A stretch of 32,000 bases of DNA from Candidatus Omnitrophota bacterium (GTDB lineage Bacteria; Omnitrophota; Gorgyraeia; Zapsychrales; JANLHA01): assembly GCA_963662715.1 (NCBI GenBank), contig OY759724.1, positions 1,260,001-1,292,000 on the forward strand, in the 5' to 3' direction. The number at the start of each line of letters is the position of its first letter. Positions within the stretch are counted from its first letter, which is position 1. The notes beneath the pieces are model-generated. The model ran no database searches. It was given only the letters and a program-made list of their open reading frames with translations, and was not told the origin of the DNA. Shown one piece after another: positions 3,001-32,000 of the stretch. The position numbers and the translations under genes are program-made.

Positions 3001-6000
3001 TAAAATAAGCATTCATGGCGTCAGGAGTAATAACCTTCCAGGTTGACTGCCCTTGCGTTCTGGATAAGAGCTGCATCGCTGCCGCAGAAATCGGAGAAGA
3101 GGAGGCAGAACCGCGGGATTGTCTAATATCAGACAACAGAGCCGATCCTTTTTGTTTGCTGACCGTAATCACACCTTTTGTCGTATTGGCATCCGGGACA
3201 TAGGTAAAAACATTGATATCTTTTGGTGTCATGGCTGCCGAATCATCCAACATAGCAATAGGCATATTTACAATTTCATCCATATCAGGCTCAAACACTA
3301 TACCTATAGGCTGAGCAACGATCTTGTCTGCCAATTCAGGAATAAGAAAATCAGCTGATAAACGGTCTTCTCTGCTCGGGCCAGGCACCTGACCGGACAA
3401 AACCCGGCGCCCAGGATGCGTATGATAAACTCCGAGCAATTTCTTTTCGCCCACGGCATTGGATTCAATCAATTGAGCGACATTTTGTGAATCCGGAACC
3501 AGATGTTGTCCTGTCCTCTCGGAATATTCTGTTAACGGAACCACATCCGTTATATTATACGTGCCTTCCGGTCCCTGTTGACCGAAAAGCAAGCCGGCTG
3601 ACTCTAAATAGGTTTCCTTTTCTTCCTGAGCAGGGATAATACTTGTTAGTCTGGCCAAATGATTAACAATTTTTGAAGGAACTGTGTCTGCGAGTTCAAC
3701 GGATATATTGGGAGTATTCTGCAAATTGTCAACGCTTACATTAGGATTCATCTCCTGCAATTTATCAAGAGAAGCTGTTCGTGCGATTGTGACCGGAGAA
3801 GAAACTGCCGTGGTTTCTCTAATAATAGCCCTGGCGTAGGTGGTCGGGCTTTCGGCAAATCGAACTGTATCGGTTTGTGCCGGATCCCAGGCCGTGCCTT
3901 TTGTTTCTGCTTTATCAACAACATTGGCGACAAAAGCTTTATCAATAGAGCCTTCCTGCGCCAAATTGGTCATCAAGGTATTGACGGCAAGGATAAATCT
4001 TGCGTCACGGGTTCCTGAACCGGTTTCTCCGCGGGTCATCAAACCGCCGTTTTCAATATAGTTGGCAAAAACTTCTTCGCCGTATTCTGCCTCTTCCGGA
4101 GAATAACGATACGAAGAGGCCATAATGTTATCGATGACGCTTACCGCCTGCTGGGTCGCATAATTATCAGACCGTCGGGCCGTGTTCATAATGCCTTGCA
4201 GTTCGCCGCTGGTATATTGCCCGGCTTTTCTCGGCTGATGGTTCTGCACTCTCTTTTCATTGTTGATAATTTCACGATGGAATCTTTCATGGTTGTAAAC
4301 AACGGCCGCATATTCCGTATAAGCTTCTTCGAGACTGACTCCCAGGGAATTCTGAATAGCGCCAACCGTCTGCAGGCTGAAATTATTCAAGTTAATATTT
4401 AACTTTCCGTTATCATAAACAGCTTTTCCGTCTCCTGCCGCAGCATTGGATCTTACGGAAACGATGCTCTTGTCTTTAAAGAAATCTGATTTTGCAACGG
4501 CCGTTTTGATAACATTGAACTGTTCCAGTGTCGGCTTGGCAATCTGGATTGGAGACGAAGAGGCTTCCACCTTTTGGCTTCCGGCGATATAATTTTGGGC
4601 TCTCAGGCTCTCTAACGTTGTTCCGTCCGCTTCCAGGCCACGGCCGTTAACCAACACAACCTCTTCAATACCCAAATCATTGATGATACGCTTCAATTCC
4701 CCGCTTTGCCGGGTGAAATTCGTTAATTGTCCGCTGCTGTTGACTGTGTTTGATCCGCTGTCAACCGCTAACACCAGCTTGCCGTTCTGCTTGCCTACCC
4801 GCATATATCCGCTGTAATCAACGCCGCCGGTCTTCAACCCGCCTAACTCCGGATAGTTTCTTTCATTCATAAAGGTTGCGTGCGGAGCTTTTGTCCCGTC
4901 TGTATAGACCTGTCTGCCCTTTAAGACATAGGTGATTCCTTCTGATAAAACTCCGCGCTCATCATTCGGGGCGGACTGAACTTCATCAATCGCCTGTGTC
5001 AGCCATCCGTACATGGCCGGATTCTTCTGCTCATAACTGCTCAAGCGGACATCTTTTTTCGTTTCCGGAGTAATGTCGACAGCGGACATCATTGACTTAA
5101 CGCTGTTATTAAAATCGCGCCGGATATCTGCCACCTCGGCCTTACCGTACTCGGCCTCCATCTGCCTCAGCTGATCCGCGCCCATGTCAACGATTTCCTG
5201 CACCAAAGCTTTTTCCTGTCCCCTCGGAGTATATTCGTTGCGGCTGATCATTTTTCCTAACCGATTGATCAGTGACGGGGCTCCGGAAACTCCCTCTAAC
5301 AACATCTGCCGGTTGAGGTCATTGGCCTTATTGCTGATTTCGGTCTTTTCCGCGCCGGAAGGCAGGCTATTGACTTTCCGGTTGGCCGAAGCCATCTCTT
5401 TCACAATCGGACGGGCATCATATTGCCGGTTTCCGGTTTCTGCGGCTTTGTTGTACCCCTGGACGGCTTTGTTAAATTGCTTCTTGGCTTCCTCAATGTC
5501 AAGCGCAATATTAGATATAGAGGAAGACGCTGTATCCTGAGAAAGGGCCATGCGGTCCTGGATACCGGAGAAATCTATGGACTGCTTCTTGACGTTGATC
5601 GCATTTACAAAATCCAGAGTTGAAACATTGCCCCATCTATTGACTTCATAAGCCAAGTCTTTCTGCGTATCCGTTAACTGGCTCGCATCCGCTGTTACAG
5701 CAGCTTTAACCTGATCCACGGTCGCATTGTATTGTTTGTAGGCGGCCATGGCCTGCTGCGTCGCGCTTTCCGGCAAATCAAGTTCCTGGACAAAAACTTC
5801 ATAACTGGCTTCCAGCACTTCTTTAAAGGCGCCGGCATCTTTCGTATAAGAAACATTAAAATCTGCCGGGAAGAACGCACTGTCGCCCATAACTTTATCC
5901 AAAGCCGAAATCTTCTGTTTGATTTGATCATCGCTCAGCTTGCCGGCTTTCTTCATTTTAACAGCCGCATTTGTCAAAACAGCTTTCTTGACACCTGCCC

Positions 6001-9000
6001 GGTAACCCTGATCTTCAAGAACCCGTCTGTTTAACTCATCCATTCTGGCTGTAACGGCAGCGGTCTTGACAAAAGAAGCGGCATCCTTGACGGAATACTG
6101 AACTCTTTCTTCAGAGTGGTATTTTCCGGCAACCTTCTTTTGTTTGCTGGTATACTGCTTTCCTGTAGATATATCGCTGTACGCCAGGAGATGACCGGCC
6201 ACGGACATGGAGGTCCCCGGCGCCATAGGGATAGCAGACACCTGAACATTATCTGTCGTCATGCCCCAGAGAATATTGCGGTAATATTCTGTGGACATCT
6301 GGGAAACTTCCATGGCATTGGCTGTTTCTCTGTCATAATCTTCCTGGCGGCTGTGATGGAAATGCACGCCGACTCCGGCCTTGACATTTTCCTCGCCAAG
6401 CATCACCGGTAAGCTTTCCGCCAAGCGCTGAACGCTGAACTGCTGAACCAACCATTCCTTCGCATCCGCCTTGCTCTTCACCTGATCCAGCATCGGGGAC
6501 ACGACTTCCGGACTGGCCAAATCTTTTTCTACCCGGGTCTCTCTCGGTCCGGCTTCACCGACACGATAGCCTAACTGGATTGTGGGGTCTTCGGATATCG
6601 GCTGTGCTTCACTCTCTGTCTTCCCTGTCACCACATATAATAACTTGCCTAATAAATCATCTGTTTTCTCCAGCTGAACGGACTCTAAGCCGGAGATTTC
6701 CATGTCCACGCCTATCTTGCGGTTCTGCAGGCTGTCGACAAAAAGGTCTATGAAGCCCGCATTGTCCAACTCATTAAAATCTTTTTCGGCTTCACTGCGG
6801 ATAGCGGCCCGCAACGCATCATTATTATTAAACAGCTCTACAACCTGCTGTTTAGGCAAACTTGCTATTGTGCTTGGACGTTGTTTTATACTGAAATCCC
6901 TAATTGGAGAACTTGTCAAACCGGATCCGAAACCGGAAGAAATCTTTGGCGCAGAAGACAACTGGAAGGTAGGCAGCAATCCCGAGCTGACAGGAGCCAC
7001 AGGAATGACCGGAGAAGAAACGACCGGCTGTTTAATCGTCGGCATACCCACAGGAGGCGCCAGACCGGTTGAAGATGTCACTTCCCTTGTTGAAAGATCC
7101 GTCATATCTGTTGTTTCAACAGAGCCGTATTTCTGCAATTGGGTATCCACAGAAGCCGGGCTGATATCCCCCATAACCTGCTGAGAAATACTGCCGGCGG
7201 AATCTGAGGATTGAGATATCTGTGACTGATAATAGTTGGTCGCATATGGCATAATGGCTGTCAAAGCTGCCGGAGCGTCTACAACAGGAGCCGGAGAAGT
7301 TCCGCTTGGAGCCCCATCTCCCCGTCCCGAGGCTTCTGATTTTCTAAGATCTGATATCTCGGCAGGATTCTCTTCTGTTTTCCAATTTCTTCTTTGTCTC
7401 TTTGACGTTGAAGAAGCTGTATCTTTTCCAGAATTTTTGGAAGAAGAACTTTCATCTCCCCGCCCCGAAGCTTCCGCTTTTCTAAGATCTGATATCTCGG
7501 CAGGGTTCTCTTCTGTTTTCCAATTTCTTCTTTGTCTCTTTGGTTTTGGAGGCGTCATCGAAGCTTCTTCAATAGAAGAGGACACCTTCACTTCTTTACT
7601 CTGCTCTGGAGGCGTTACGGAAGAATCATCCTGTTTGGGAGGAACAAAACCTTTCTTTTTGCTAGGATCCGTAGAAATCCTCTTGCTGCCCGTAAAGACA
7701 GATGAAATATCAGAAGACGCGTCTAAAATCGGCGAGGATTGTCTTAGCGGGCCTTCGGTTGAAAGATCCAGCATCATCTGCCAATAGTCCTTAACCGCTC
7801 CTGAGAAATCCTCTTCCTTGGTCGCACTCTTATTAGCATAATACGCCGCCAAGACCGTCTTTCTAAAATCTTTTAAGGCTTGAGGGTCTTTTTCCACCTC
7901 AGCAATATCAAACCACCTCTGTCCCATCAAATCACGCGTATTCACATCAAACGCCAATACTCCCGAAAGCGTCACCCGCGTCCCCATTTTCTGCAGTGCT
8001 TCCGCCGTTCCTGCTTTTGTTAATATGCTCTCAAATCTCCTCTGGCTCGTTAACACCGATATCATGTCCTGAGGACTTAACAACGTTAAAGACGTCTCCT
8101 GCGGCCCAGCATATTCCTCCAATGCTCTGGCATAAACCCCTGTCAGTGTATCGCTCTCTTTTTCCGCTTTCGTAAACGAATTGTGCACATGCGCAAATCC
8201 AAGAGAATGATCCGCCTGCTGGTTCTTTAACGCTGTCTTTAAATTGAACGCCGCTGTCGGATACACAAACCGAGGACTCGAGAAGGTCTCGATCCCCAGC
8301 TCCCCATCCAAATACAGGTTGTCTGTCATCCCGTTAATCTGACCGTTTTCTATTGAGAACTGCCCTGCCACCTTCTGCGCCTTGATCGTTTCGATGACTT
8401 TCTGCTCTAACTCTTCATTGCTGATGCTGTCTCTTTCCCGGCCCGGGAACATTTCATGCAGCTTCTCGGCAGAGAAGAACCGCGCCATGGAAATATCCTG
8501 CGCCAAGACAATATCTTTCCCTGATAAGAAGAACCGGTTGCCGTCATCCTGCTCCACTTCCGAAATGATCGGATGTGACGCGATTTCCAAGCCAAACTGA
8601 TACGTGCCGCCACCGTTGACTTTCCGCATGGCCGGCAATGCCCGGGTCCACCCGTAAATATTCTTGTCTAAATCTCTCACATCATTCACACCCAAGCTCT
8701 TGGGAACCAGAATATGGGAGAATGTTCCGCCCGGGTCCATGGCAATCAGGTAAACTCCGAATTCTATAGGCTGGCTAAACTTCCGAACATCTTCCTGGAA
8801 CACTGTCTCAATCTCGCTCAAAGGATATCTGAATTTCGTTCTCTGCGGCGAAACCGCTGCCCCGTTCTCCCTTGGTTTTCTCCCGAATAAACTGATGGGA
8901 GAAGACTGTGCTGTTTCTTTATCTAATAATGATGAGCTTCGCGCAATCTCAACTTTCTGCTCTTTTTGAATAGAGGAAGAAACTTTCGGCTTAGAATCAT

Positions 9001-12000
9001 TAAATGTTCTCACCATATCACCAACGGCTGATTCTGCCTTCCGGGCACCATCTTCTTCCTGAAGCGCAACAACAATATTATCTATTTCAGAGACACCAAA
9101 AGCACCCGCAGCGCTAACCTCCGGCTGCTGCAACTTTTGAACGATTGTTTCTGTTAATTGGTCCGGACTCTTTGCCCCGGACAAAGCAATCTCCGTAACG
9201 ATTTCGCCCAGAACCGGGTTGTCTACAGCTGCCGCATGAATCTTTAATGTATCTCCTTCTTGTGAAACCAGAGGATTTTGCAGCCCGCTAATCACTTCAA
9301 TAGTATTTACTCCCGTCACCATTAAGTCAGACTGTTTATTTAAACTGCTCTGAAGTTTAACTTTTTGCTCTGGAGTTCCCTGCACAGCCACCAAAGACTC
9401 TCCCACCTGCAACGGCATACCCACATCGAGATTATACTGGGTAAAGAATTGCCTAAGCTCTTCATTGCTTTGCATCTTGCCGACCAAAGCTATCAAATCC
9501 TGATCCCCTGCCCCGGAATGGAACCTTATGGCTTCCTCCGGAATATGAAGGAAAGGTGAAACATGGCCAAACAATTCTACGGCTGCTCCGAATTCGGTTT
9601 TCGCAAGAGGCATCTCGGCTAACTTGTGCAAATCTTCCTTGGTAACGATATGACCCGGTTTCTGTAATGTCTGCAATTGATTAAGGAAAGCCACTGTAGA
9701 CTCATCCGTTTCGTCAAACTGACGGCTCTTTTGAATACGCTGTTCTATATGCTTTAATTCCGTCTTCACCTGCTCCAAGGAAAGATCTGTCCGTTGCGAA
9801 TCTTCAATCCCGGCAATCAGGTCATACACTGGGTGATCGTATTTCATGTTTCCCTTAGCCTGATATTTATCCAAAAGATTGCCTACAAGGGTTTTCAATT
9901 CTTCATCCCCAGATTTTTCAACAATGTCTTTCAATTGTGATAAACGACCAACCACAAACCCAGGGGAAGATGTTTCTTTCTTTTCTGTTAAAGCATGATT
10001 TCCGTCATGGAACAAAGCCATCAAGTGACTGACAAAATCCCTTCGTGTCTTTTCCTTGCTAATATATATCTGCGAACCCGGACCTCCTGTTTCACTGTCT
10101 TGGTCATCAAATTCTTTATAATTCGCAAGCGTACCCGGAGCATACATACCCTGTTTATTGTTCGCGACATTCAATTCATCCTGAATTAAATACTGAAGAT
10201 CCACTCCCGCCTCTTGGAATGCCACTAAGAGACGGTCAATTTTCTGGTTAAAGGCGGCTTGGGTTTCCGCATCAAATTGGCCGCCCAGCCGTAAATTAGG
10301 TTTGGACGCCTCGACAGCACTCTTCATTTCTGCAAAAGAAAGATCCTTAACCATGGCCATATTATACTCCCGGCCTGAGGCTAATTGGCCAAAGAGCGGG
10401 CCAACCAAGGATTGATCCCGGCTGTTCTGATAATGCGGGCTTTGAGAGAGGACGTAGAACGGAAGCATTGTGGCTAACAATTCGTTCCATGACCCATCCC
10501 CGGCATGCTCAAAACCATAATGCTCTTGGCCACGCACATCTACACTATATAACCCTTCCTTAAATATACTGCCATCGACAACCTCTCCGCCTTCGTTAAA
10601 TAAAGCTTCTGTTGCCCCGGCCCCTAAAACCCGGTCGAGACGTTTTGTCTGCACCCATTGTTCTCTTAATATCTTTTGCCCTTGCGGTGTCTTATCCAGA
10701 TTATTAAGCGTATCCAGGAAGTGATGGCCTAAAATTTCGTGAATAGGCTCCCAGACCTTCTTATAGGAATCACTCTGTCCTTTTGAACTAAAACCGCTCA
10801 AGGCTGTACGGATATCTGTAGTGCCTCTGGCATGTTCTGCTGCCGCCTCACCTTTCTTGTCCATTCTCCGGCCAGGAACCAAAGAGAAGCTCACCCGCTC
10901 TAATTCTGCTTCTAATTTTTGATCTCCAAAAAGAGCCTCTCCTTGCCCAACCCCCAAAATGTCTTTGGCCAACGGCAAAACATCCCGCTGCCAAATAATA
11001 CTTCTCGTTTCCATTTCTTTGGATATCCGGTTCAACTGGGAAACGACCTTTTCCGCATTATAATCAACCGTGCTTGCCCCCTGTAAAATTCGATATAATT
11101 TAGCCGCTTGAGCATTAGTTAAAGAATCGGACAGGCCTAAATCAAAGCTGCTCTTAAGCTGGTCAAACTTATCCTGAACAACCCCTCTTTCATCAATATA
11201 TCCATTCTCCACTAATTCAGAGAAAAGACTGTCTGCTTTTCTCTGTTTTCTTGCCGCGCGCTCTTTAGAGGAAAGGCCTTTCCCCGTAACCGTAACGACT
11301 GAAGCCAAGTCCTGTGCTGTAACAGGCCGGCCGGTCTCTGAACCAGCTACAGCCAAAATCTGTCTGTTTATTTCTGCTCTTAAAGCATTTTGTTTTTCTG
11401 CTACCACTACTTTCCGTTTCTCCAGCTCGGTTCTTTCTTCTTGAGAAATGTTTCCTTTCTTCTGCAAACCGGATTCCAATTCTTTCAGGTCAGCTTCTGC
11501 TTTCCTCTGCTCAGCCACTAAGGCATTGAGCATCGGCAACACGTCCGCCAGCAAAGCTTCTCCAGCTCTTTCGGCAAGATTAGCCGAAGGAGAGTCTTCC
11601 GAAGCGTTTAATTCATTATATTTGTGCTCGTACAGAAGAGCGATAACCGTATTCTCAACACTAAGGCTCTCCTGCAATTGTTTTTTACCGCGTCCCACAG
11701 GAGCAATAAAGTTATCAATCGACCGGTCATGAACTTCTATTTGGTCAAAATCAGCAATATTATCCGGAACTGTCAAACCCTGCCCGTTATTCAAAGCCTT
11801 GATATATCCGCTATCCAAAGACAAATTCTCTTGCGGAGCCACGGCAATTCTTAATTTGGCCTGCTGCAGTCTTGTTTTATAAGCTTTAGCCTGTGTCGAC
11901 TCGTTGCCGTTGGCATCTCGAGGAGCGACACCCAACAGAGTCAAGGTATCATCTTCACTTAAATTCAATTCCTCGGCAACTTTATTCACCATATAAGGGG

Positions 12001-15000
12001 TCACCATTCTCATCTGCCTGTTTCCGCTTCCCGCCATAACAGAATCCGCCAATTTACCCAATCGGGAATAAAATTTGTATTCCACAGAATTCTTATCATA
12101 ACTTTCCAAAGTCGGTCCCAAAGCATCAATGAAAGCTAAAATTTGCCGGCCTTCTCCATTAGGAGACATGAAACGTAACGGCAATTGCCCGACAGCATTC
12201 TTCATAAAGGTGCTTCTTTCAGCCCGATTCATAAAAATATTCCGCAAATTATTAAATTCCCCTGTCGAGGCATACATTTCATTAGTTATAAGTTCGGTCA
12301 TCATACGCATTTCACGGCCGTTTCTTAAAGCATGTCCCTCACTGCCTCCTATACCTAAATCACTAAGACTCATAAGTTCACTAGCGTATCGCTTCTGATC
12401 ATCCTGTCTCATCTCGACAGCTGCTTTTTCCCTGGCAGCTTTAACTTTTTTCACAACCTTTGCCACATATTTACTTGGTTTCACGCTCTTATCTGCTGAA
12501 ATAACCCGGTCAATGACTCTATCAATCAATTCCGGAGAATAAAAATCATCAAGAGTCAATGTACTCTCAACCAATGCTTCATTCCCGGATATTTGTGCGG
12601 CATTTGCGCTCTGCTCGCGGATCATGCTGTCCGCCTTCTGCCAAACAGGATTATCCCTATAGGTCCCCACGGCATACAAACCAGCCATAATTTTTAAAGC
12701 TCTGAACCGCTGATTGCCTTTATCTTTACCGGTTAAGCCTAAAACTTCCTGAGCCTTTTTGATCGTTCTGACAGAAGGACTTGAATAAAGGCTTGTTGCT
12801 TCACTCAATGTGGCTTTATCTTCTTCCTCCCCTCCGAGAGAACTATTGATAATGCTGAATTGTTTCGCCCGTTCCTGAACAATCTCCATCATAAAGTCAG
12901 AGACCTCTTTGTCGTTTACAACGCCGGCCAAAACTTCTTGCTTGCGCAGGGGATCGTCCTCTGAAGCATAAAGCACGGACATAAAATCTTCCATAGACAG
13001 GTCACCAGGTCCAATTAAACCGGCAGCGGCTAATTCCCCGATATTATTGTCTAAATTCAGGAAATTGGAAAGTCCGGATGTAAAGGAATGAGTGAAGCTA
13101 ATATACGAATTTTGAGCCAAACTCACGGCAACATCCATCCCCTTGACAAAGTTTGCCCGCAGATCATCCTGTGTTAACGGTGCCGCTAAATTGCCTTGAC
13201 TGTCTCTTGTTCTGCGGGCAAGACCAAATGTTCCTGTTGCAGGATCAAGTTGAGGGGCTGTTCCTTGTGGCATAACTTTAAATATTCGGAGCAATGCCTG
13301 TTCCTGCGGACCGCTGAGCGTTGCCAAACTCGCAAAAGTTTCAAGGGCATCAGGATTAATCTGGCGGTCGAGATCGCTCACTCCTTCCGAGACATCGGAA
13401 AGGACCCCGGGAATGGCGGCAAGAGTCTGGAAGTACGTTTCTGCTTCTTGCCCGGAAATATTTACAGCGTCAAACAACTCGCCCACCGTCTGAGGAACAG
13501 CCTGACCGTTCCAAACCTTTCCCTGAGGACGTAATGGAACAAAAGTATCGCTTGCGGTCTTCCCAATAGTAATTGTTGTCTGATTTTCAAACCCGGGATA
13601 TTGTTGAGTGAAGTCTCCCATTTCGTTACGGGATAAAATGGATTTTGTAATATCTGCCACTCTGTCTGCGGCTAAGAAATAAGGTAAGGACTCACCTGCT
13701 GTCGGTCCGCCGTAAATCAGACCTTCCAACATAGACTGTGTTTTGGGAAGCAATAAAGCAAAAATTTCGCTGTTTCTCCCCATTTTCGTTTCCATAAATC
13801 TGGCCGTGGAATCCAAGGCATCCCGTATAACAAAGTCCGTGGCACGGGCTTCTTTAAATTTGTTCATCAAAATAGAATCCGAGGTCAAGGCCTCTGTTCT
13901 TAACAATTCCAAAGCCCTAATAACGTTTTCCCGCCCGCCCCCTGGCGCTGACCGCTCAGCCATAATTGCATCGTCAATCGCCCGGTATTTCGGAGTCATT
14001 GCTAATTCCACGGCTAACCGCGTATTTTCTATTCTTGACGCCATTCTTTGATTCTTATTTAATGTCTTTACGACAAAATCATTATATGCCTTTGGCCCTT
14101 GTTCTCCTGTAGAGCCTTTTTGTTCCGTGGCCAAAAGAACTCGAGTCGGCATATTGGCAAAATCAATAGATTCTTTGCCGCTGGCATCAAAGCTCATAAT
14201 CCCGCGAGGCCGGCCTATAGCCTGCCTGACCATTTCAAAGAAAGACCGCGGAGTAGAAACAACGATCGCGATACTGTCTGCTTTAAAACCGAAGTTTGCA
14301 CCAACGGCTCTCGGCCCGAATGTAATAATAATCGGTGCCTCATTGTCAAAATGCATCTTCTTTAAACTATCGACCTTCCGATTGCCTTTAATAGCCTGCG
14401 AAAGAGTTTCCCCGCTGGCTCTGTCCCAAACAATTTCCCGGCCATTGGTATCCAGAACAATGATTGTTGACTTTTTGTGAGTTGGAAGCTGTCCGACACT
14501 TGCCTCAATTTGTTTTACAACTTTTTCATTCACTAAATATGTATCCGGGAAGAAGAGGTGCAGGGCTCTCTTGGCCAACGACTTCCCTCCGGAAATCGCA
14601 TCAATATTATTAACGATGGCTTTTCCAGGGTTTGATTCACGGGCTGCTATAAATTTATCGGTTTCGTTTTCCCCTGGTCTGAACGGGACCTGCGAACTCC
14701 CCATGGCATTTGAGTCTTTTATACTCATGGTGACCAGTTCATTAGCGCCATAAAGTTTTAGCATTGTGGGAGATAAAGGCGAGGCGCTGATCATTAAGAC
14801 ATTTGATCCTTCAGTCTTAACAAGATCCCTCATAATTGTGTCAAAACTAACCCGGGTGATTGTCTGTGTCACTTCAACGCCTTTCGGATTTCCTTTTTTA
14901 CGACCAAAAATCGGGGATTGGATCAATTCATCCATAACCGGCCTGATGAGATCCTGCACTTTCACATCATAAGCTTCGCCTCCCATCAAACTCACCGGAC

Positions 15001-18000
15001 GGGATCTTTGTTCTCCCAGCGGAGCACTATATGTGCGATACAATAATGGGAGAATTTCCCCCCAGGATTCTATCCCGGCATTGAAAGCAGCGATTAAAGC
15101 GTCCGCTTCCGTATACCCTTCCTTCAACCCGTACTTTTCGAGAACTTTCTTATCCAAAGACAATCTTTTATTTCTATTTCTTGATAGCTTATCCACCCCT
15201 TCATGAATCGTAAAGCCTTCTCGAACCGTGCGCATTGTTTCTCTTTGACCTTTGGAAACCAAAATCTCTGTCAACCATGCCTGGACCAATTCCAAAGAAG
15301 CAATAGCTCTTCCGCCTTTTTCTCCCGGCTTGCTGATCCACTGTTTTCCCTGACTGTCTGTTCCGCTTAAAAAGTGCATCATATCTTCAAAATTCTTTAT
15401 GGTCTGTCTCTGCTTCGGATCCGGATGATTTTTAGCAAGTTTTCTAATAGCTCTGTCTAATGCCTTGAACGCTTCCGTAGAAAAACCCTGCAATACTTCC
15501 GGAACATATCTGACTTCCCCGGTCCGTTTGCTTAGATTAAGGAAAGGCATATATTCCAATTTCGCGGCCTCATCAAGAATCACATGACGGCCAGTCCCTT
15601 CTCCTTTACCATTTACCCTTCTTTTCATGGCATTGTATATATTCGAGTAGAGTTTGCCTTGAGCCTGATCGGCCTTCTGGCCATAGACTAATTTTATAGT
15701 ATACGGGGAGGTCACAACCAAATCGGCATTTTCCAGATTCGCCAATACGCCAGCCGGGTCACTCTGCACATCTTCCATTTTCACTTCGACAATTTTCTTT
15801 AAACCTTGCTTGGCTAATTTTTCACCATGTTGCTTCTTCAGAAAATCTATCTGCTCACGAACCAAGGCATCCGGAACAATAACCAATGTTCCTCTTCCTG
15901 TAAAGCTATTATAAAGGGCCTGTGCAATCATTAAAAACGTGGATTTTCCAGCACCTGTTTGAGCCGTAATATAATTAACTTGCGCAGGAGCTTTCCCTTT
16001 AGTATTACGAGCATGCGCCGCATCAATAACATTAGCCCCGTTTAGAGCCAAAAACATTTCCGGCTGCCCTGCTTGTAGCAATTCATATCCTGTAATTTCC
16101 GAAGCCGTTACAAGAGCCTTGGCCAAGGTAGGATCCAGAAGGGGTTTTCTCGTCCGTATATCCCAAATCGTTGTCAACTGAAGGATTGTCCTAATATCTT
16201 TAATTTCCTGACCGCCAATAAATACTCTTACCGGTTTTCTGCCGTTCATGGCATTGGCGACTTTCTGAAGATCACCATAAGAACTAAGAGTACTCATCTC
16301 AATGACTTGCGGTTTTTTGTCCCGGCCGGTAAACAGAGAGGCGAACCCTTTTGCTTTTATTTTTAGTTCTGATACTATTCTCCTCATTCTGGACCGCTGT
16401 CCCAGCGGCATGACTGTGACGGTCGGGGTTTCTGTGGCGGATTGAGGCGTTGAAGAGCCTTTTTTGGCTGTTGTTTGAGGCGTGGTTGAGGGGGCGTTTT
16501 TCTCCGCAGAAGTAGGAGGCCCGGTCTTCTTGGTAGCGTCTTTTGCTTCTGTTTCGGTCTTCACGTCCCTCTCTTTTGGCGGAACTCTCAATGGCGCTGG
16601 CAACAACGCAATAGACGTCCACAAAGATAACTCGGAAGCAAGTTCTCCCAAATGGGCCAATCCTTTCTCACTGTCCAAGCCTTCCCCGCCGGTTAAAATA
16701 TTCAAAACATATTTCTCTGCAGGAGTCGCTGTGTCCGCTGCCGTTTGTTTGGCCAAATTCATCAAACCCGGAGTAAAAACATGTTGTGTCAAAAGATCAT
16801 TGGCCCCCAGGAAGACCGACAATTCATCAGCTTTGGCTATTTGTTTAACCAAAAACGATCCGCTCAAGCCTTTTTCCCCTACCTCTACACCTAATAAACG
16901 ATGGAATTGATTCCCTTCGCTAAGCAAGGTTTCCATGCTGACCGGCTTTTTCTTTAACGCGGCTTTTCCTGTCCGGCCAAACAAACTCAAATAGCCTCCG
17001 ATACCCCGATTTGTCGCCTCAAGCCTGGCAAGAGAAGAATACGCTGTGGGCATCATAAAATGAATAAGAGGTCCGGTTGTCGTACCGCCTTCCAATCCGC
17101 CACCGACAGCCTTGAAATATTTTTCAATCATTCCGAAATATTTCAATTTATTGGACGGAGCATCGCTGCCATAGTTTGCGCCGAATATATTTAAAACACC
17201 CTTTGCCGTATCTTTTGTGGCTTCCCAAAGAACACCGGCGGAGGCAAAACCGATGCTTCCCTGAAGAGACATCATCGGGACAGTCAATGACTTTTTCAAA
17301 GCCTGACTAACTGTCGCTACCGGAGCTGCTTCCATAGCCCCTATCTTGGCAATTCCTCCGGAGAAAAACTTTTTTACTTGCAGGATATTTGCCCCGGCAA
17401 TAAACAGAAAGGCCGCAGCCAGCCGGGTTTCAGTGGAAAGATCTTTTCCGTCACTGATAAAATTCTTATAAATGTAATTTGGGCCAACATATCCAGAAAC
17501 GCCTGCCGCAGTGGTTCTCAAGACTCCCTTAACCAAGGTTCCCGGCTGGATAGCTGCTATGCCGCTTTTTTGCGCGTCAATAGAAGGAAGAACTTTTTCC
17601 GCAGCTTTCTCAGCGGCTAATTTTGTCCCATATCTTTCAGCTGCGACAGCGAAATTTTCAGGCATCGTGACGCCTGCTTGACCTGACTTAAGCGCATTAA
17701 GAGTTGATCTTTCAGCTAATGCCATACCAACGGAATTAACGACAAAAAATGCCATTCCTAATCCAGCTCCCCAAAGCCCTGACTTGTTAAATGATCTCCC
17801 AAAATCCCCCAAGCTAAAGGATTCCTCATTAATTATAGCTTCCGAATAATCCGATAGCCCTCCGGACAAGCCCCAGGTAGCATACATAGAACCGATACCA
17901 GCCAAACCTTTTAAATTGGCTATGTTGCCGGCACGAGTCAGAAAGCTGCCTTTCATTGTTGACAAGAAGGAACCTGTTCCCAAATTCGGATTATATCCGC

Positions 18001-21000
18001 CCATCTTCCCGGTAAACATCTTGGAAGCAACATAAACAGTGGCAAATAAAGCCGGCCCTTTGGCAGCGCCTCTCAAAGCCGCGGCTCCCCAATTAGCGTC
18101 CCGCTGATCGACAAAAGCAGAGATACCTTCGTTCGCCATAGCGCCCAAGGTCGTTATACCGGTTACAGTCGGTAAACCCACAGCAATTCTCGCCGCCTCA
18201 CCCTTTAAACCTTCAGCTGTCAAAGCCTTGCCAAAAGCTCCCAGCTTAGGATATTTCTCTGCCACACGACCTCCCCAAGCAACTAAACGCGGACTGACTT
18301 TTGCCAAAGTTAAGCCTCGATTCGTAAGGAAAGTAGCGACTTTGGCCGAGCCTTTAAGAAAACCTACTGTCAAAATAGCGCTTTTCAGGTTTTGCTCTAA
18401 ATTCATAAATTCGCCGGTCATGCCCAAATGAATCAAATTCTCAACAAGCAAAGTCGTGGCGACTTTCATTCCGTATTTTTTAATACTTTCTTTAACAACT
18501 TGCTTGGCGCCTTCCTTAATAGTAGCGAGAGTTATCTGCTTTCCAACTTCTAGTCCGGCCTTGACCCCGGCCTGTTTGGCGGCATTGACAATGTTCCCAA
18601 CCCCTGTGAGAGCCAAAATAATGGTAATAGGAGCGGTAATCCCTTCAACCCATCCCTCAACCTGCGCTACGGTATTTAATTTTTTCCCTTCAAAGATAAA
18701 ACCTCTAAAAGTCTGATCTCCGCTGAGCAATCCTTCCGGAAGAATAACATTGCCCTTCCGATCTTTTCTCTCGTCATTGGACAAGGATCCCAGCAAACGA
18801 ACAACATCCTGCCCATCCACAATCCTTCCCATAAGCGCATTTTCATCTTTATCAAAATGCACCGCCAAATAATTATTTGTGTTGGAATCGGTATCATAAA
18901 CATCAAACATGCCGCGATAATCGTTTTGGCTCAAAAGCATAGACCCTATCTGATCATCGGACAATTTATCCGTAGCATAAAAGAAATCCCTGTCATTCAA
19001 CTTTTTATCTTTGGAGTTCTCATCTTTACCGGAGAATCTAATATCATCCACGTCCAGCTTGGTCTTCAGGGGCAAAAGATCGGTAAGGACATTACCCTCA
19101 GCATCGGTAAGATAAGTGTCAAAATCATCTCCGCCAAAACCGCTCCAGCTCATAAAATCCTTTAACGTGATTACCCCTACGGTCGAAACCACCTCTCCAT
19201 TAAACTGGGCTGCTACGTCTGCCGGGAGGTTTTCATCCTCATGAAAGTCTTCACTGTTGTCTTCGACATGCTCTCGCGATCCGGCCTGCCGTCCATACAA
19301 ATTGATTTCACTCGCATAAAATTGCTTCTGAATGCCATTTTCATCAACAACAATAAACTTTTCTCCCTTTCTCATCTTCTTTATCAGCTGAAATGGCATA
19401 TATACGGGGTTGCTCATCATGCTCTGATCTTGCATACGATCCATTACCAGGTCAATTGAACGCATTTCTTCCTCTTCAGCCCATTTCTTAGAACTTACGG
19501 TAACAGGAACCTGCTTGCCGCCTATATTAAGAAATACCTGCTTCAAGTCACCGGATTTTGGACCAAAAACATGACTTTGATCGATTTGATGCATGGCAAT
19601 AATATTACCATCCGCATCCAGTTTCAAAACGATCTGGTCATTATCTCCCCTGCCGTCGGATTTGCTGCTGAAAAAGCCCGCTTTTCTCTTAGTCTGAAAA
19701 TCATTTAAAGCCTGATCAAGCTCTTCCCCTGTCACACCTCTAAGATCCTGCAGCATCTCTTCGTTATCCAATCTGCGATCAAAGGCATAAGCTATGCGTC
19801 CGCTTTTCGTAAGCATTCTATATATCTTCTCGCTGGAGTTATTCACAAAAGCATAGGACCCATCACGGATAACGGCTCCATTTGTTGTGCCGCCTCTTAA
19901 AATCTGCACCACTCTTGACATCTGAGGATATAAAGGTAAAACAACGACTCCAGACCCGGTCTCAAGATTAATAAGCAATTCACCGCCGCCATAACTGTCC
20001 GTACCAATCAGGCTATTCATGGCATTCAGAGAAGCTTCTAATGTCGCGTCTATTTCTGTTCCGGCGTCTTCTGCTGTTGATGCCAGCATAATCCCGTCCA
20101 CAGACATCCCGTTATACTCAACGCCAAAAGTATAGTCATCATTCGCATCACCCAAATCCAGATAAGCTAAAGATCCGCCCCCTAATATGTCTTTAACCCT
20201 GAACTTCTGGGCAAAAGCTTTGTTGGGATCGTAGCCGCTGCTTTCATCATTGGCCGGATCATCTTTCTTCAGCACCGATAAAACACCACCCACAACGTTC
20301 GGAAGAAGAACCCCGCCATTCTCTGCCATCCCCGCGTTATTTTCATCATTATAAGCATTCTCATTATAAATTGAAGTTAACAAGGAATACGTCGTTGGCG
20401 TAAGAACTCCACCCGAGCCCAAGACAAATGTCAGTCGTCCGTTCCCGCTGGTCGTCCAGTCATCAATGGTGGCAGCTATCTCCTGATCAGGAGTCAGATA
20501 AACCGTTCCGTCTTCCCCGGTTCTTTTATTTTTGATCGAATACATGCCTCCGCTGTCTATTTGAAATTCCGGCCGGCCGGCTGCCTTGGATTTTTCAGGG
20601 TCTTCCGGAACAAAAGCAAAAGATTCCCAAACCCCTCCCTTTTCTGCGAACCGGGCCGTCCCTGAAAAATTCACGTTCATGATTCCCAAAACTTCCTGAG
20701 CTCCGTTGAAAAGCTCCTGAGCCGAATAGACGATAGCGCCATCGGATTCTCTCTCTTTACCATCAATACCTCTTGATTCAACAACAACATTGAAGAACGC
20801 CATGACTTCTCTTAATGCCGTCTCTTCCACATCCGCCATCTGTCCATCCGTGGCTTCGGCAATAATAGCGGCAACATCTTTGTCAGAAATAAAATATTTC
20901 GGTTTTACCGGGGCCATAGCAAACTCTTGATACCCCGGCGTTTCTAAATCCTTTTTATACTGAGCATAATCTTTCTGATATTGACTCGCCACCTTTTCAA

Positions 21001-24000
21001 TCTTGTTTAATATCTTCTGCACCGTCGGGTTGTTTTTCAAAGCTTCCAGATCATCGGGAAGCGGGGCGCTAAGATCATCGACCTTTGACCGTGCATAGGC
21101 ATTAATCTGGCCGGCCAAATAAAGGTTCATTTTCTGAGTGAAAACTTTAGCAACTTCCTCCATTGTATACTGCTTATTTAAATCCATTTGCTCTCTGGCA
21201 GCAAAAAGATGGAATTGACCGTAAATCTCTCCCATTTTAATACCGATAAGCAACTGATCTAAATTAAAACCAATCCGTCTTCCGCCCTCCACAACTTTTA
21301 TTCCCGCCAATCTGCCATCCGCCTCATCGCTATAGAAAAGATCCGCAGTGATTCTTTCTCCCGTACTCTTTGCGTCTTCTCCTTCTCCTACTTTAATCTT
21401 GCTGTTCTCCCGGACAGAAAGGAACGGAATTCCTGAATTGGCGTCTCGAGCTGATTTATCTATGGCATAAATGCTTCCCACCCCAAACGGCGTATGGGTT
21501 GGTGTGCCGGTAAAAACTTTGGATTTCTTTCCCGTGGCCTCATCGGTGACGATTTGACCAAAAGCAAAAGCGAGGCCCTTTGCCTTTGTCTTGTTCTCAT
21601 CCAGATATTCTTCATCGTTCAGGGATGTCAAATCAGACGCACGATATACAACCAACCCCTGTTTGACCGACAACTCATCCGGCCTCAAAAGCAATGCTCC
21701 TTCAGCCGGGGCATCTTTAAAGTTTACGGCTTCTTCCTCTTCTGCCGACTCTCCCTGGGCTTTCTTTTCCTGTATTTCGCTAAAATCAATATCTATTTCC
21801 GTTGGATTTAGACCTAAAACATCGCCTCTGGCAACCCGGAAATAGCTGTTGGCCAAAGAAAGGTCATCAGCCCAAAATGCCGTTACTTTTCCACCGACAT
21901 TTCTTAATTTATTAATCACAAAATCCGGAGTCTTTCCGACAACGGATTCCACAATATAATCGATATTCAACTGGGTGGGGTCATCCTTCATGGCCTGGGT
22001 AATATGCAAATCATTGTAGGCCGCAGACCTCTCGTCCATCAAGCCTTTCATAGCGGCAAGAGTCAGGCGTCCGTCCCGCCCTGTTACGCGGACATTTCCG
22101 TCCTTCAATTGAACGGTTTCATCAAAATCGCTCACAAGCAAAGCCACATTTTTCTGATAACCATCTTCCATATATCCGAGACGGACCTGTTGTTTGAAGC
22201 CTTTTGATGATGTGATCTCTGCAGATGAAACCTCCTGGCTTTCATCTACATGGCCCTCCAAGGCCCCGCTTTGCTTAAGAAGAAATGTTTGGCTTTGGTC
22301 AATATATGTCAGCGTGTTACCGCCGTCTCTGATAGAAATCGCCCCATTCGCTAAAAATATTGATTCAGCCACGAAAGGCGTGAAAGCCTCATCTACGGTA
22401 ACCGTCTCTCCCGCTTCTTCAAGTTCGGCTTTTATTTCTTGAGTATCTCCTAAAATAACCTTTGTCTGTACATGCAATAAACCTTTGATCCCAGCTAAGT
22501 TGCCCGAAGCAACACCATCGAGAATTTCGACATCATCAGCAGCATTCACCTTATAAACGTCTTTCAACCTTTTAACGCTGTTAACCCTATTCTCAACATA
22601 AAAACTCGACAGAGATTGATTCATCTGCAAAGGATTCTCTTCCGTACCAAAATTTGCCGTAAGCCATGGATTTGCCAGGAAAGAAAGGCCTCTCGTCCCC
22701 TGCCCCTTAACCTGATTCGTATCTTCTTCATTCGCATTACCTTCATAGTCTTCGGCCGCATAGATATCGTCACCGCTGACCCCGCCCACTCCAGCCAAAT
22801 AAACATTGACCGCGCTTCCGTTTTCCAATGAAAGACGGGTTACATGTTTGGGGTTCATCACAACATTATCGTGCGCCATACCTTCCACATCTTCAGAAGA
22901 AAGACCGCCTGGGCCTGGAGTCCCGCCACCCTTGGAAACCAACCTTTCTCCCAGCCCGGGAATCATAGCAAGCAATTGAGGACTTAGAATCTTTTCAAAA
23001 AAGGCAACGCTCGCAGACGCGCCATCCCCTTGCCCCTCTACTTCCCCTTGAACTGCCCGGCCGCCGACAAAAGGTTTGAGCATGCCGTCTTCATCAATAC
23101 CAAAAAGAGAAGCGCCTTCTCCCCGTTCAAAATCTAACACCGTGGAATCAAGCTTATTCCCTTCCCTGTCCTTCAGCGTTATTGTCGCCTTAGGATCTTT
23201 TGTCAATTCGCCCGCACCCCAGAGATGCGTAAATTTCGGGTCGTTTATCTTTGTGGCAAAGAAATCGCCCTCTTCCCCTATATCGCCGATTTTTTCTTCA
23301 TCAAACTTAACCCGGAGATCCTTAATCTTTGCAGCCACCTCCAGCTTTTGCTCCAAAGTTAACTCATCAACTTCTTCGGGGGTAGACAAACCTAGTTCTG
23401 CCTGCAATAATGTCCTGAAAGCTTCCGTATTCACCAGATTTTTCAATTCAAGGGAACTCACCAAAAACGAATCCCCGGTATATCCCATTTGCCCTTCCTG
23501 TCCTCTTAAATAGTAGGAAATCGAATTATCATCATTAATTTTAACTATTGTGTTGTTAACAGTCATTTGTCCATTAAGAGGATGTGCCCCGTCTTCATTC
23601 CCGTATACGGCAATTTTCGGATTCCTGGCAACAAACTCATCCACGCGGATCACAAAAGGATGGGCTTCATAAATCCCTGCTTCTTTGTCATGTAAAAATA
23701 GATACGGAAGAGCTCCACCAGTTTCTTCATTATATAGCATATCCGTGGAGTACAATTCAGCAACGCCCTGTTCTATTGTTTTGTCATAAACAACCGAGCC
23801 TTCTTTCTTTTCTCCGCCTTCTTCCCCTTTAGTAATATAGTGAATATAACTTCCTAAAATAGCCGCGTCATCAAATCTCAATTGTTGAGTAGCTTGGTCT
23901 ATGGATGTTTTCGCCTCGGCAATTAAGCCGGTGGCCGATGCTTCTCTAGTAATAAAATTTTCCGCCCCACCCATTTGCGCCAATAATTCTGTTTCGATAT

Positions 24001-27000
24001 CACTCCCTGTCTCTTCTGCGGATTCAGCTGCCGAAAAAACATCTTCCAGCTCAATCCCCAAACCTTCCAACTCATCTAAAATTTGCGCCAATCTGACACT
24101 TTTTTCCGCAAAATGATCTGTCTCAGGAGAAAGATTCCCCCCAGCGGCAACTAAGCTTTCAAAAGTCACACCTATAGCCGCCAGATTATCTTTAATGCGT
24201 GTTAACCTTTCAGCAGCCGTTCTTTTACTGGAAAAACGGGAAAATATCGCCCCGGAAACCAACTCAGGGCTTAATGTTCCGTCCGGATTTGCTATCCGGC
24301 CATAATATGCTTTTGCAAGAAATGCCGTTGGGCTGGTATGAGAGTCTAATATTCCGCCGGTTAAATCAGCATAAGAAATACCGTTTCCTTTTGCTATGGC
24401 CCGCACCATAACACCGTCTCCGGGGTCTACAGGCGACATATTGTCTTGCAGAACAATCGGATTCTCTTCTGATCCGCCAAAAGCAAAATCCGTCCGCAAT
24501 TGCCCTTGGCCAGTCTCATCTACAAAACCGCTGCCCATGAAACTGAAAACATTCGTTCCCATGTCATTGACAGTGGCCAATTCCGTATCTTCAGCTATAT
24601 CATATTTTGCATAAAGTTTTTTGACAGAAGCGTCATACTCAGCTTGTGTAGGAACTCCTGCTTCCTCATTTACTGAAGAGGCCCCGGAAAAAGCGACCTT
24701 TATCTGCCCATCTACCTCTTTAATATCCAGCCCATCTAATGCAATACCGCTGGCTTCCAGAGCTTCAAGAACTCCCGCTTTCTTTTCTTCATCCCAAGCT
24801 GTCCCTTCCTGGCCTTCCAAAGCGCTATAAAAAGTGATCTCGCCCTGCCCGGATAAAGCGGCTAAAATAGCGTCATTAACATCCTCTGTTTTCAGCGGGG
24901 CTGTTTCTTGTCTTTCTTCCTTCTTTACTGAAGAGGCTCCGGAAAAAGCGACCTTTATTTGCCCATCTACCTCTTTAATATCCAGCCCATCTAATGCAAT
25001 ACCGCTGGCTTCCAGGGCTTCAAGAACTCCCGCTTTCTTTTCTTCATCCCAGGTTGTCCCTTCCTCAGCATCCAAGCTGCCATAAAAAGCGATCTCTCCC
25101 TGTCCGGATAAAGCGGCGGAAATAGCGTCATTGACATTCTCTGTTTTTACCGGCTCTGATTCTTCTTCAGCCTCCGGCTGAGCAAGAGCTTTAATTTCCC
25201 GATTCAAAGCTATTTTATCATTCAGTGTTTCCCAATCCTGCCGGGTCATTCTTTCTTTAAAAAAGTTAACCGCAATGCTCGAGATATCGCTGTCTGCCGT
25301 GGTTGTCGCCAAAACATTGGTGATCAAATCTTTTATAGGGCCTTCGGCTATGGCCAAATCCATAACCGTTTCTTCCAAATTTCCCAGCGTATCAACAGCA
25401 TCAAGAGCTTCGGTAATTTCTTCAACAGCATCTGCCGAAAGTTCCGGGAAAATTTTGGCAAAAATAGCCTGCATGGCCACAGCTTCTACACCCAAAAGCT
25501 TTTTCTTTAATGTGCTGTTGACATTTCCATCCGCATTAGCTTTCTTAATATCTTCCAGGGTGATACCCAAGGCATTAAGCTCAGCCAGTTCTGCCGCAAC
25601 ATCCGCTGTTTCAACTTTACCTTCAGCAATGCCTTTAAGTGTCACGCCTTTTTCGTTGAGAGCAGTAACTATCTGGTCAAATCTTTCCGCTTTGGCCTTG
25701 ATATCCACAGCCATCTCCACTGGCCCCTTAGACTTGGAAGATACTCCCAGGTTTTCAAGGCTTGCCAAATGTTCGGCAAATTCCGGATCTTCTGCGGCCA
25801 ACCCATCCAAAACAGAAGGTTCCGAAGTATCTTCCACCAAGTCGGTTTTATTCAATTCTTCCACCAAAGCAACTAATTTCTCGGTTCTCTCTTCTTCTGA
25901 AAGATTGGCTATATCAGCAAGGCCATATTTTTGAATAACAGCCTGGATATTTTTCACTCTAATGGAATATCCCGCAATAGAGTCCAAGCTGGCTTGATTC
26001 AAAGCATCTTTAAAACCCACATAACTCGTACTCATCAGATGATCAACGCCTTTTTCTCCGCTTTCTTTTACAATTTGATACTTAGAAGTAGACGTTGTTC
26101 TTTCTCCGATAAGGATGTCATCATCTGTTGTGAAAAGATCTCCCGCAATATTCCAACTGGCTTTTCCAGATCCTTCCCAAAGAGGGCCGGAATCCACTAA
26201 CTGAGACCTAGTTACTTTCTCCGCCAAACTTGCCTCCATAGTAGTCAATCTGGTCTTTTTCGGAGTAATATCTCTTTCAGTACTTAAAATAAGACTTTCA
26301 ATTTCATTTATTTTTTGCTCTATAGCTTGTTTTTGTTCGTCCGTTTTCGTTCCAGATTCAACCTGCTGCTCCAAATACGCTTTCTCTTCTTCTAATTTTG
26401 AAATTTTCGTTTCCAAGCCTTCAATTTCCGCTGATAAAGCAGAGACATCCTGTTTCATCTGTTCAACTCTGGCCTCATAACTCTCTCTGCCTTGTTCTTC
26501 TCTTTCTTTTTCAGACAAGCGATGCGCCTGAATGGATCTCACGACAGAAATATTCGGTTTCTTTTCCTTTTGATCTTTAGCGGATTCTTGTTCTTTGTCC
26601 GCATCCCCTTTATTTTGCTCCCTTTCTTTAACTTCCTCAGAATCATCAGAGCTTTCCGGAATATCATCTGCTTTTTCCTGATATGCCGGAGTGTCTATGG
26701 GCTTCTCTGTTAAAGCTATTTCCGGAACCTCATAACCCGAGTCTGATGTTGTTTCCGTTGCAGGAACAGCCAAGCTACTCCAGGAATCCAAGCCTCCTGT
26801 CAAAGTTTCAGAATTAAATGACCAACTCCCATCTGTCTCCTGGGTATAAACAGCATATCCCACATCCTCAAAGCCAAGACCCCAAGTCAAGTCATAGCCA
26901 TCACCCGCTCCGCCACCCATGTTCAGGGTTTCGGTTTCGTTCGTTTCCAAGATTTTTTCTTCATTTTCCGGCAAAACATCCGTGCCAAAAGTTAAGAATT

Positions 27001-31708: not shown

Positions 31709-31718
31709 TTTTTATAAT

Positions 31719-31880: not shown

Positions 31881-31890
31881 TGGCTTACCC

Positions 31891-31924
31891 AAAAACAAAA
31901 AAGCCACCAAGTGGTCTTGGTAGC
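31891..31924 (-). terminator. Rho-independent terminator-like hairpin plus T-tract for a minus-strand gene ending beyond or near the right window edge
   Basis: The minus strand reads gctaccaag-acca-cttggtggc, a 9-bp stem with one G-U pair and a 4-nt loop. It is followed by ttttttgttttt. Confidence 0.6.
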
Positions 31925-32000
31925 CCATAAAATTGCTACAAAATTTCAGAAATGCTTTCTGTTAGCAAAAATTTCATTATTCTGTTGGCCCTCTTTTTTG

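Follow-up and report, generated by a model that had tools for sequence, protein, structure and literature searches.

How a protein as long as tens of thousands of residues is made, inserted, and exported by a cell has no settled answer; ATPase modules embedded within such giant proteins are the only obvious candidates for dedicated motors. We analyzed one such module in a 32,000-nucleotide stretch of DNA from a Candidatus Omnitrophota bacterium (assembly GCA_963662715.1, contig OY759724.1, positions 1,260,001 to 1,292,000 of the forward strand), which we refer to as the window. An original prediction, made from the letters of the window, had proposed that a giant protein encoded here joins a multi-pass membrane block to a SecA-like DEAD ATPase and might thereby carry a built-in translocation or extrusion engine. 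Our analysis bears out the core of that proposal, in that a single polypeptide appears to carry a hydrophobic, probably membrane-associated segment followed by a complete superfamily 2 (SF2)-type P-loop ATPase. We consider it likely that this anatomy is correct, with the SF2 ATPase placed downstream of a segment that associates with the membrane. What the ATPase acts on, and whether it is related to SecA, are matters on which our evidence speaks with less force.

A six-frame scan for stop-free frames, followed by translation, revealed that the sole long reading frame of the window lies on the minus strand (31711..2). The giant open reading frame (ORF; 2..31708, minus strand) has its start codon, an ATG, at 31708 and its 3′ end past the low edge of the window, and the encoded protein is at least 10,570 amino acids (aa) long. 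Collinear homologs were found in two metagenome contigs, L001 and L022, and in the proteins P0002 and P0004. All features described below are on the minus strand, and each is given with its window positions, its residue numbers in the protein, or both.

The SF2-type ATPase core (14177..16078, aa 5212-5845) is supported by Pfam matches below threshold, a family alignment, and Foldseek, and it contains motifs Q, I, Ia, Ib, and II, then an insertion, and then motifs III, IV, V, and VI. Motif I, or Walker A (AQTGAGKST; 15938..15964, aa 5250-5258), reads QTGxxKST or MTGSGKST in relatives, and motif II, or Walker B (VILDEAA; 15563..15583, aa 5377-5383), has its counterpart in DEGH in P0002 and DEGG in L022. 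Between motifs II and III, the family alignment exposed an insertion of about 250 aa (14807..15544, aa 5390-5635) with a highly conserved core (RPVSxMGGEAYDVKVQD) and no Pfam match. Motif III (LMISASPLS; 14771..14797, aa 5639-5647) includes two serines, S513 and S515 of the query segment, that are invariant in all five aligned sequences. The motif V region (PIIITFGPRAVGANFGF; 14285..14335) supplied the degenerate DNA pattern that retrieved L022, and motif VI, the arginine finger region (QAIGRPRG; 14201..14224, aa 5830-5837), conforms to a family consensus of IGRxRG. The core is preceded by a conserved N-terminal extension of the ATPase (16079..16366, aa 5116-5211), recognized by alignment with L001 from its FTGRDK and VFIGGxE sequences. 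The extension is in turn preceded by a basic, low-complexity linker rich in T, P, K, and S (16367..16573, aa 5047-5115), which was read from the translation and of which neither the length nor the sequence is kept in L001. Thus, motifs I, II, and VI and the motif III region were found where the original prediction had placed them and are conserved in relatives, and the basic T/P/K linker that it described is present at about aa 5047-5115.

A phmmer search of 1.84 billion representative proteins with the ATPase segment (aa 5130-5870) identified four relatives, P0001 to P0004. The closest, P0001, is 57% identical to the segment and is encoded on L001, an 11.9-kb contig from the ENA metagenome data that is collinear with aa 4123-7995 of the giant protein at 39 to 58% identity. 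P0002, the one relative with a named source, is a truncated ORF of 4,475 aa from "MAG: Candidatus Omnitrophota bacterium isolate STA_64," and P0003 and P0004 are fragments. The source of P0002 is suggestive of an Omnitrophota origin for the window, which carries no marker genes. L022, the contig retrieved with the motif V pattern, is collinear with aa 5172-7230. Two scans of genome contigs and one of two scans of metagenome contigs returned nothing or only the P0002 contig, and a word-indexed search of 5.8 billion proteins with the ATPase sequence or its profile returned only P0001. The ATPase family is extremely rare, very small, and very divergent. In a six-member alignment, relatives at 24 to 57% identity retain the full SF2 motif set in canonical order, with the consensus sequences aGQxexF (Q), A/GQTGxGKST (I), VPDALVREQ (Ia), DxVVT (Ib), DEAA/DEGH/DEGG (II), SAS (III), LHxFxxDT (IV), PIIITFGxRxxGAN (V), and IGRxRG (VI). 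Motif conservation at such low identity is far more than would be expected by chance. The intact catalytic residues suggest a likely active enzyme, and the ATPase is apparently catalytically competent. As a separate observation on the contigs, L001 contains two reading-frame switches (around 4029-4056 and 6158-6215) and L022 contains two others (around 1891-1920 and 2375-2383), at which gene callers split the sequence into separate ORFs. These switches could stem from errors in assembly or sequencing, or they could be genuine disruptions or programmed shifts.

We next consider the superfamily to which this ATPase belongs. In Pfam, the DEAD family (PF00270) matched with an E value of 1.3e-4 for the 741-aa segment and 2.8e-5 (24.3 bits) for a 200-aa piece of the first RecA lobe, with scores ranging from 22.1 to 24.3 bits, and ResIII (PF04851) matched with E values of 8.9e-4 to 8e-3 (16.5 to 19.6 bits, under its gathering score of 22.5), whereas Helicase_C (PF00271) had no match in the ATPase segment. 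This profile check against SecA_DEAD, Helicase_C, and ResIII left the finding of a P-loop SF2 ATPase standing, on DEAD and ResIII matches below threshold. For profile-profile comparison with hhalign, the SecA reference was a 13-sequence motor alignment made from PLSDB tblastn matches and Escherichia coli SecA, and the controls were single E. coli SF2, SF1, and Rho proteins and a three-sequence DEAD-box alignment. SF2 proteins and SecA scored 24 to 37 against the family profile, versus 12 to 21 for the SF1 proteins Rep and UvrD and for Rho, for all three of which the hhalign probability was below 0.5%. For an AlphaFold2 model of the ATPase, the best Foldseek match in the PDB was RIG-I (E value, 3.6e-5; probability, 0.90). 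For this low-confidence model, the 50 best matches were mostly SF2 ATPases with two RecA lobes, including INO80, Hef, Snf2, RapA, Dicer, MDA5, Brr2, and the eIF4A DEAD domain, and most of these SF2 ATPases carry accessory or inserted domains. The TM-scores were about 0.15, so this result lends weak support at the superfamily level only. Searches of PDB sequences with phmmer and with the profile by hmmsearch gave nothing significant, with matches only at the P-loop level to ABCB1 (E value, 0.02) and adenylate kinase, and NCBIfam, PADLOC, and PHROGs scans gave nothing meaningful. Judged by its sequence, the protein is an SF2-type ATPase.

Upstream of the linker lies the block that the original prediction had described as about 650 aa of multi-pass hydrophobic segments (16574..18664, aa 4350-5046). 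It stands out in composition and hydropathy as rich in G and A and mildly hydrophobic. Over aa 4350-5020, G and A account for 13.4% and 13.1% of residues, versus 8.2% and 9.5% in the whole protein. The mean Kyte-Doolittle hydropathy of the bin spanning aa 4501-5000 is +0.15, making it the only positive bin among the interior 500-aa bins of the protein; the N-terminal bin is at +0.14 and all remaining bins are at -0.16 to -0.59. Within the block, the two strongest transmembrane candidates are GITAPITIILALTGVGNIV (18587..18643, aa 4357-4375; 19-residue Kyte-Doolittle score [KD19], 1.77; Wimley-White octanol score, -3.1 kcal), which is near-identical in L001, and LWGAGLGMAFFVVNSVGMALA (17714..17776, aa 4646-4666; KD19, 1.63; octanol score, -3.3 kcal), of which the hydrophobicity is kept in L001. 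A third, marginal candidate, LAAAFLFIAGANILQVKKF (17366..17422, aa 4764-4782; KD19, 1.41; octanol score, -1.2), is hydrophobic in L001 as well, and a further marginal hydrophobic segment is VPMMSLQGSIGFASAGVLW (17225..17281, aa 4811-4829; KD19, 1.12; octanol score, -2.9). Beyond the two strongest candidates, the octanol scale gave only marginal ones, at aa 4766-84, 4811-29, 4877-97, and 5028-46. Outside the candidates, the block is amphipathic and rich in G, A, T, and K. Charges flanking the candidates are too even in number for a topology to be assigned. Relative to L001, the block is 39% identical overall, with near-identical islands that include the three best hydrophobic segments. The part of the original prediction that stands is thus a real G/A-rich hydropathy outlier, which from its hydropathy is probably membrane associated; the extended multi-pass character is overstated, as only two segments pass a Kyte-Doolittle score of 1.6 together with an octanol score below -3, and about three are marginal.

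The order of block and ATPase recurs beyond L001. By BLASTP, P0002 has in common with the giant protein only the ATPase and the N-terminal signal anchor with its C39-like region, and yet upstream of the ATPase of P0002, at a distance of about 560 aa, there is a block that is likewise rich in G and A and mildly hydrophobic. The arrangement of block and then ATPase therefore recurs even where the sequence of the block cannot be aligned.

From the observed motifs and their conservation, the SF2 affinity, the hydrophobic outlier, and the architecture kept in relatives, we infer a model for membrane insertion, topology, ATPase activity, and substrate. In this model, the G/A-rich region, which is about 700 aa long, would be seated in the inner membrane by two confident and up to about three weak helices. 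The disordered basic linker of about 70 aa would lie on the cytoplasmic side and tether there a two-lobed SF2 motor of about 630 aa, DEAD or DExH-like in type. The RecA lobes would open and close as ATP is bound and hydrolyzed in the cleft that separates them, and this would produce stepwise movement along a linear polymer, which the conserved inserted domain of about 250 aa in the first RecA lobe may help to grip. The motor would then work in a SecA-like way, with or without SecA ancestry. We judge the chances of the whole package, the tethered SF2 anatomy together with a polypeptide-motor mechanism, to be about even. Taken alone, a polypeptide as the substrate, and with it the mechanism of a polypeptide motor, is somewhat less probable than that; the site of the insertion and the context lead us to favor it over a nucleic acid.

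A number of results weigh against this model. With regard to the fold, the DEAD match remained under its Pfam gathering score (24.3 versus 26 bits), and the AlphaFold2 model, made from a five-sequence alignment, had a mean predicted local distance difference test score (pLDDT) of 47.5, with only parts of both lobes reaching 60 to 86, so that the evidence from the fold is weak. With regard to SecA, the label of the original prediction found no preference in any comparison, whether Pfam, hhalign, home-made hidden Markov models (HMMs), or Foldseek. The window segment had no Pfam match to SecA_DEAD (PF07517), SecA_PP_bind (PF01043), or SecA_SW at an E value of 10 or lower. The hhalign probabilities for the family profile were 27% for RhlE (the maximum over all targets), 13% for UvrB, 6.3% for the SecA alignment, 6% for RecQ, and 2.2% for the single SecA sequence, and SecA at 2 to 6% is thus not preferred over RhlE. 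As all of these values are low, they leave SecA unsupported rather than excluded. An HMM made from the 13 SecA sequences and a DEAD-box HMM each scored about 0 bits on the ATPase, even with the --max option. Structure prediction and Foldseek placed RIG-I, INO80, Hef, and Snf2 on top, with no SecA among the 50 best PDB matches of the low-confidence model. With regard to the substrate, the wording of the motifs (AQTGxGKS, DEAx, and SAS) is nearest to that of DEAD-box RNA helicases, which favors a nucleic acid. With regard to the membrane, a Kyte-Doolittle score of 1.6 or higher was reached in only two 19-aa windows of the block (aa 4357-4375 and 4648-4666), the counterpart block of P0002 has no segment at that level, and transmembrane predictions on giant proteins have been called unreliable by the very authors who reported them (10.1101/2023.11.21.568195).

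In one alternative, the ATPase would depend on nucleic acid, as an SF2 helicase or translocase of the DEAD-box, DExH, or RIG-I-like kind housed in a multi-enzyme giant protein. Its substrate would be RNA or DNA, such as that of prey or of its own cell, and the hydrophobic block would be a mere anchor with no role in translocation. The Pfam matches of the ATPase are limited to DEAD and ResIII, hhalign pairs it best with RhlE, an RNA helicase, and with UvrB and RecQ, and its leading Foldseek matches, including RIG-I, Hef, Snf2, and Dicer, are RNA- or DNA-dependent SF2 enzymes, all of which favors this alternative. Furthermore, the DEAD-box consensus is echoed in motifs I, Ia, Ib, II, and III, with motif I (AQTGxGKS) near consensus, DEAx or DExH in motif II, and SAS in motif III. 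However, the similarities are all weak and general to SF2 as a whole, and SecA has the same core, so that they are also compatible with a protein substrate. In contrast to DEAD-box and DExH proteins, the window ATPase has IGRxRG instead of HRIGRxGR as motif VI and matches Pfam only under the gathering score. As far as is known, the insertion of helicases with inserted domains, such as RIG-I and Hef, is placed after motif III, unlike that of the window ATPase, which lies between motifs II and III. Among nucleic-acid helicases, a large insertion at the latter place is, to our knowledge, uncommon, and it is characteristic of SecA. We found no recognizable nucleic-acid-binding accessory domain near the ATPase, and unlike SF2 helicases, the module sits inside a giant protein that is membrane anchored and belongs to a type for which SecA-type domains have been reported (10.1101/2023.11.21.568195). 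On this evidence, we regard a helicase or translocase acting on nucleic acid as a real but unlikely identity for the ATPase, and a block that serves only as its anchor as equally doubtful.

Another alternative concerns ancestry, with the ATPase being a true but extremely diverged descendant of the SecA_DEAD and preprotein-binding module of giant Omnitrophota proteins. The context is the same at the level of the phylum, as is the order of parts (N-terminal C39 domain, transmembrane regions, and ATPase), and the published clade of these domains has "exceedingly long branches" (10.1101/2023.11.21.568195). The insertion also falls at the site of the PPXD of SecA, between motifs II and III; the SecA alignment is variable between DEVD and GMTGTA, and the insertion of about 250 aa has no detectable PPXD similarity. 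This insertion site remains, as far as sequence comparison goes, the one SecA-like trait. By eye only, LEYMPFLNLS after motif II and RVSFDTIMRD...ISAS loosely resemble IDEARTPLIIS and ITFQNYFRLY...GMTGTA of SecA. These points are set against the lack of SecA preference described above in Pfam, hhalign, the home-made HMM, and the top 50 Foldseek matches. Moreover, only four relatives exist among the 1.84 billion representatives, and none is recognizable by Pfam as SecA_DEAD; no SecA family matched any of the four at an E value of 1 or lower. The 2,134 aa downstream of the ATPase had no Pfam match to the helical scaffold and wing (PF07516), which the published SecA-like modules of giant proteins lack as well.

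Compared part by part with SecA (NBD1-PPXD-NBD2), the window ATPase is alike in its SF2-like, putatively two-lobed form with Walker A and B and motifs III and VI, in the large insertion between motifs II and III within the first lobe, and putatively in its place at the cytoplasmic face of the membrane. It is unlike SecA in that no similarity is detectable past the P-loop region by sequence or profile, in that it has no helical scaffold, wing, or C-terminal domain, and in that it is covalently joined to a putative membrane anchor, whereas SecA docks on SecYEG. Descent from SecA is possible, though we do not consider it probable.

A further alternative is directed at the tether itself. The block may be a spacer that is soluble and either helical or partly disordered, or a segment of the glycine-zipper type with only peripheral membrane association, leaving the ATPase without a membrane tether at this place. 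Only 2 of the approximately 12 hydrophobic peaks of the block reach the Kyte-Doolittle score of 1.6, and octanol scores as marginal as those of the block are also seen where the protein is soluble, such as -2.4 just past Walker A. Lysine is frequent throughout the block (7.8%). No membrane-protein family matched it, nor did any Pfam, NCBIfam, or PHROG family, and the word-indexed search of 5.8 billion proteins found no relative of the block. Self-BLAST detected in it no internal repeat and no likeness to the N-terminal transmembrane and Gly-zipper region. A single-sequence AlphaFold model of the block (mean pLDDT, 34.8) had no confident packing, was uninformative, and was kept out of the fold search. 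Opposing a spacer, aa 4357-4375 and 4646-4666 are stretches of 19 to 21 uncharged residues that are of transmembrane grade on two scales and are both kept in L001, the block forms the sole interior hydropathy-positive bin of the protein, and many transmembrane helices have been predicted for proteins of this kind in published work (10.1101/2023.11.21.568195; 10.64898/2026.06.07.730766). A spacer without a tether thus appears rather unlikely. The nucleotide-binding domain of an ABC transporter was rejected as a candidate because the order Walker A-LSGGQ-Walker B is absent and the sole SGG stretch (ISGGK) lies about 320 aa past Walker B and is not conserved.

The tethered SF2 ATPase can be placed among giant Omnitrophota proteins already described. 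These proteins have been reported to carry N-terminal C39 peptidase domains and numerous transmembrane predictions (West-Roberts et al. 2023, bioRxiv 10.1101/2023.11.21.568195), as well as divergent domains of the SecA_DEAD and SecA preprotein-binding types in which the scaffold and wing are absent (10.1101/2023.11.21.568195). Accordingly, what the original prediction had stated about transmembrane regions and divergent SecA_DEAD domains in giant Omnitrophota proteins was accurate (10.1101/2023.11.21.568195). The transmembrane anchors are described as "followed by secA related domains," and it has been proposed that adjacent transmembrane regions may anchor the motor and that the motor may export the giant protein itself (10.1101/2023.11.21.568195). 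A built-in translocation engine in the window is thus a hypothesis that had already been published with the proposal of West-Roberts et al. 2023, and is not new. A 2026 preprint sorted 916 long proteins into architecture clusters that include C39-only and SecA_DEAD-only clusters (PF03412 and PF07517; 10.64898/2026.06.07.730766).

The window ORF shows the features by which giant proteins of this kind are known, with at least 10,570 aa, an N-terminal anchor at aa 51-69, and a Peptidase_C39 domain above threshold. Like the Archaeovorin- and dockerin-type giant proteins, it exceeds 10,000 aa, begins with a signal anchor and a C39-like peptidase, places hydrophobic regions right before a P-loop DEAD-type ATPase that has no SecA scaffold or wing, consists of very long-branch sequence, and has an ATPase with an Omnitrophota relative. 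Unlike theirs, its ATPase was not recognized, at any of the thresholds used, by the SecA_DEAD or SecA_PP_bind family of Pfam and has only about five relatives in public data. Archaeovorins are listed with glycosyl transferases and hydrolases, methyltransferases, and NUDIX, and most of these enzyme domains were undetected in the 10,570-aa stretch. The case in the window is a more divergent version of the published arrangement, and what is new in it is an ATPase unrecognizable as SecA_DEAD that belongs to a very small family. Outside the Omnitrophota, a SecA-type ATPase in a very large protein was observed on a 13.8-kb plasmid of Legionella geestiana (NZ_CP041715.1), which is mostly occupied by one hypothetical protein of 2,948 aa (record positions 453-9296) with a SecA-motor-like domain 25% identical to E. 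coli SecA.

As the general arrangement has been published, the gain from this locus is incremental unless the substrate is a polypeptide. A module can evidently diverge past recognition by the SecA_DEAD model and yet keep the full SF2 motif set and an insertion at the PPXD site, and surveys that count SecA_DEAD domains therefore probably undercount such motors. It is conceivable, though improbable, that the ATPase and its insertion represent an unrecognized SF2 family turned into a membrane-tethered polypeptide motor, either independently of SecA or by extreme divergence. If so, the giant protein would be able, independently of the canonical Sec ATPase, to thread thousands of its own or a partner's residues across the inner membrane. 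The ATPase with its extension forms a compact, expressible segment of about 760 aa (aa 5112-5870).

The remainder of the giant protein contains several other features. Near the N terminus, hydropathy indicated a signal-anchor helix, TVALAIVLIFVPEQVSWAF (aa 51-69, approximately 31503-31559), which is followed by a Peptidase_C39 domain (aa 216-296, 30824-31066) that matched Pfam with an E value of 1.1e-6 (28.9 bits), above the gathering score of 22. A candidate catalytic Cys (FNCGVYAL) and His (SEHFVTV) are kept in this domain, and the signal anchor with the C39-like N terminus is also found in P0002. The strongest transmembrane candidates of the whole protein cluster in aa 330-870 (approximately 29100-30720), at aa 339-357, 395-413, 579-597, 811-829, and 852-870, making this region a more convincing multi-pass membrane domain than the G/A-rich block at aa 4350-5046. 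Glycine-zipper families (Gly-zipper_YMGG and Rick_17kDa_Anti) matched in Pfam below threshold at aa 445-485 (30257-30379).

Downstream of the ATPase, about 2,100 aa (aa 5870-7995, approximately 7730-14100) are conserved and collinear in L001, L022, and P0004 at 24 to 58% identity, implying that the ATPase is the start of a much larger conserved module. This downstream region had no Pfam match, whether in the window, in L001, or in P0004. At a distance of about 3,500 aa downstream of the ATPase, a Prok-JAB or JAB (MPN) domain (aa 9354-9453, 3353-3652) matched Pfam with an E value of 2e-5 and 24.9 bits, just under the gathering score of 25. The JAMM-like motif of this region (HTHPG...SRED) suggests that the giant protein may have a second processing domain, of the metalloprotease type. 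A weak match to GGDEF (diguanylate cyclase) followed at aa 9594-9670 (2702-2932; E value, 0.011; 16 bits, under the gathering score of 23.8), and GGDEF domains are mentioned for giant proteins (10.1101/2023.11.21.568195).

Finally, we observed that the GC skew of the plus strand is negative across the whole window (-0.06 to -0.32) and strongest at 26000-30000, towards the 5′ part of the gene, consistent with a single long minus-strand gene. The AT skew changes sign near 17000-19000 and 29000-32000, and the skew pattern of the window is probably due to amino acid composition and not to replication.

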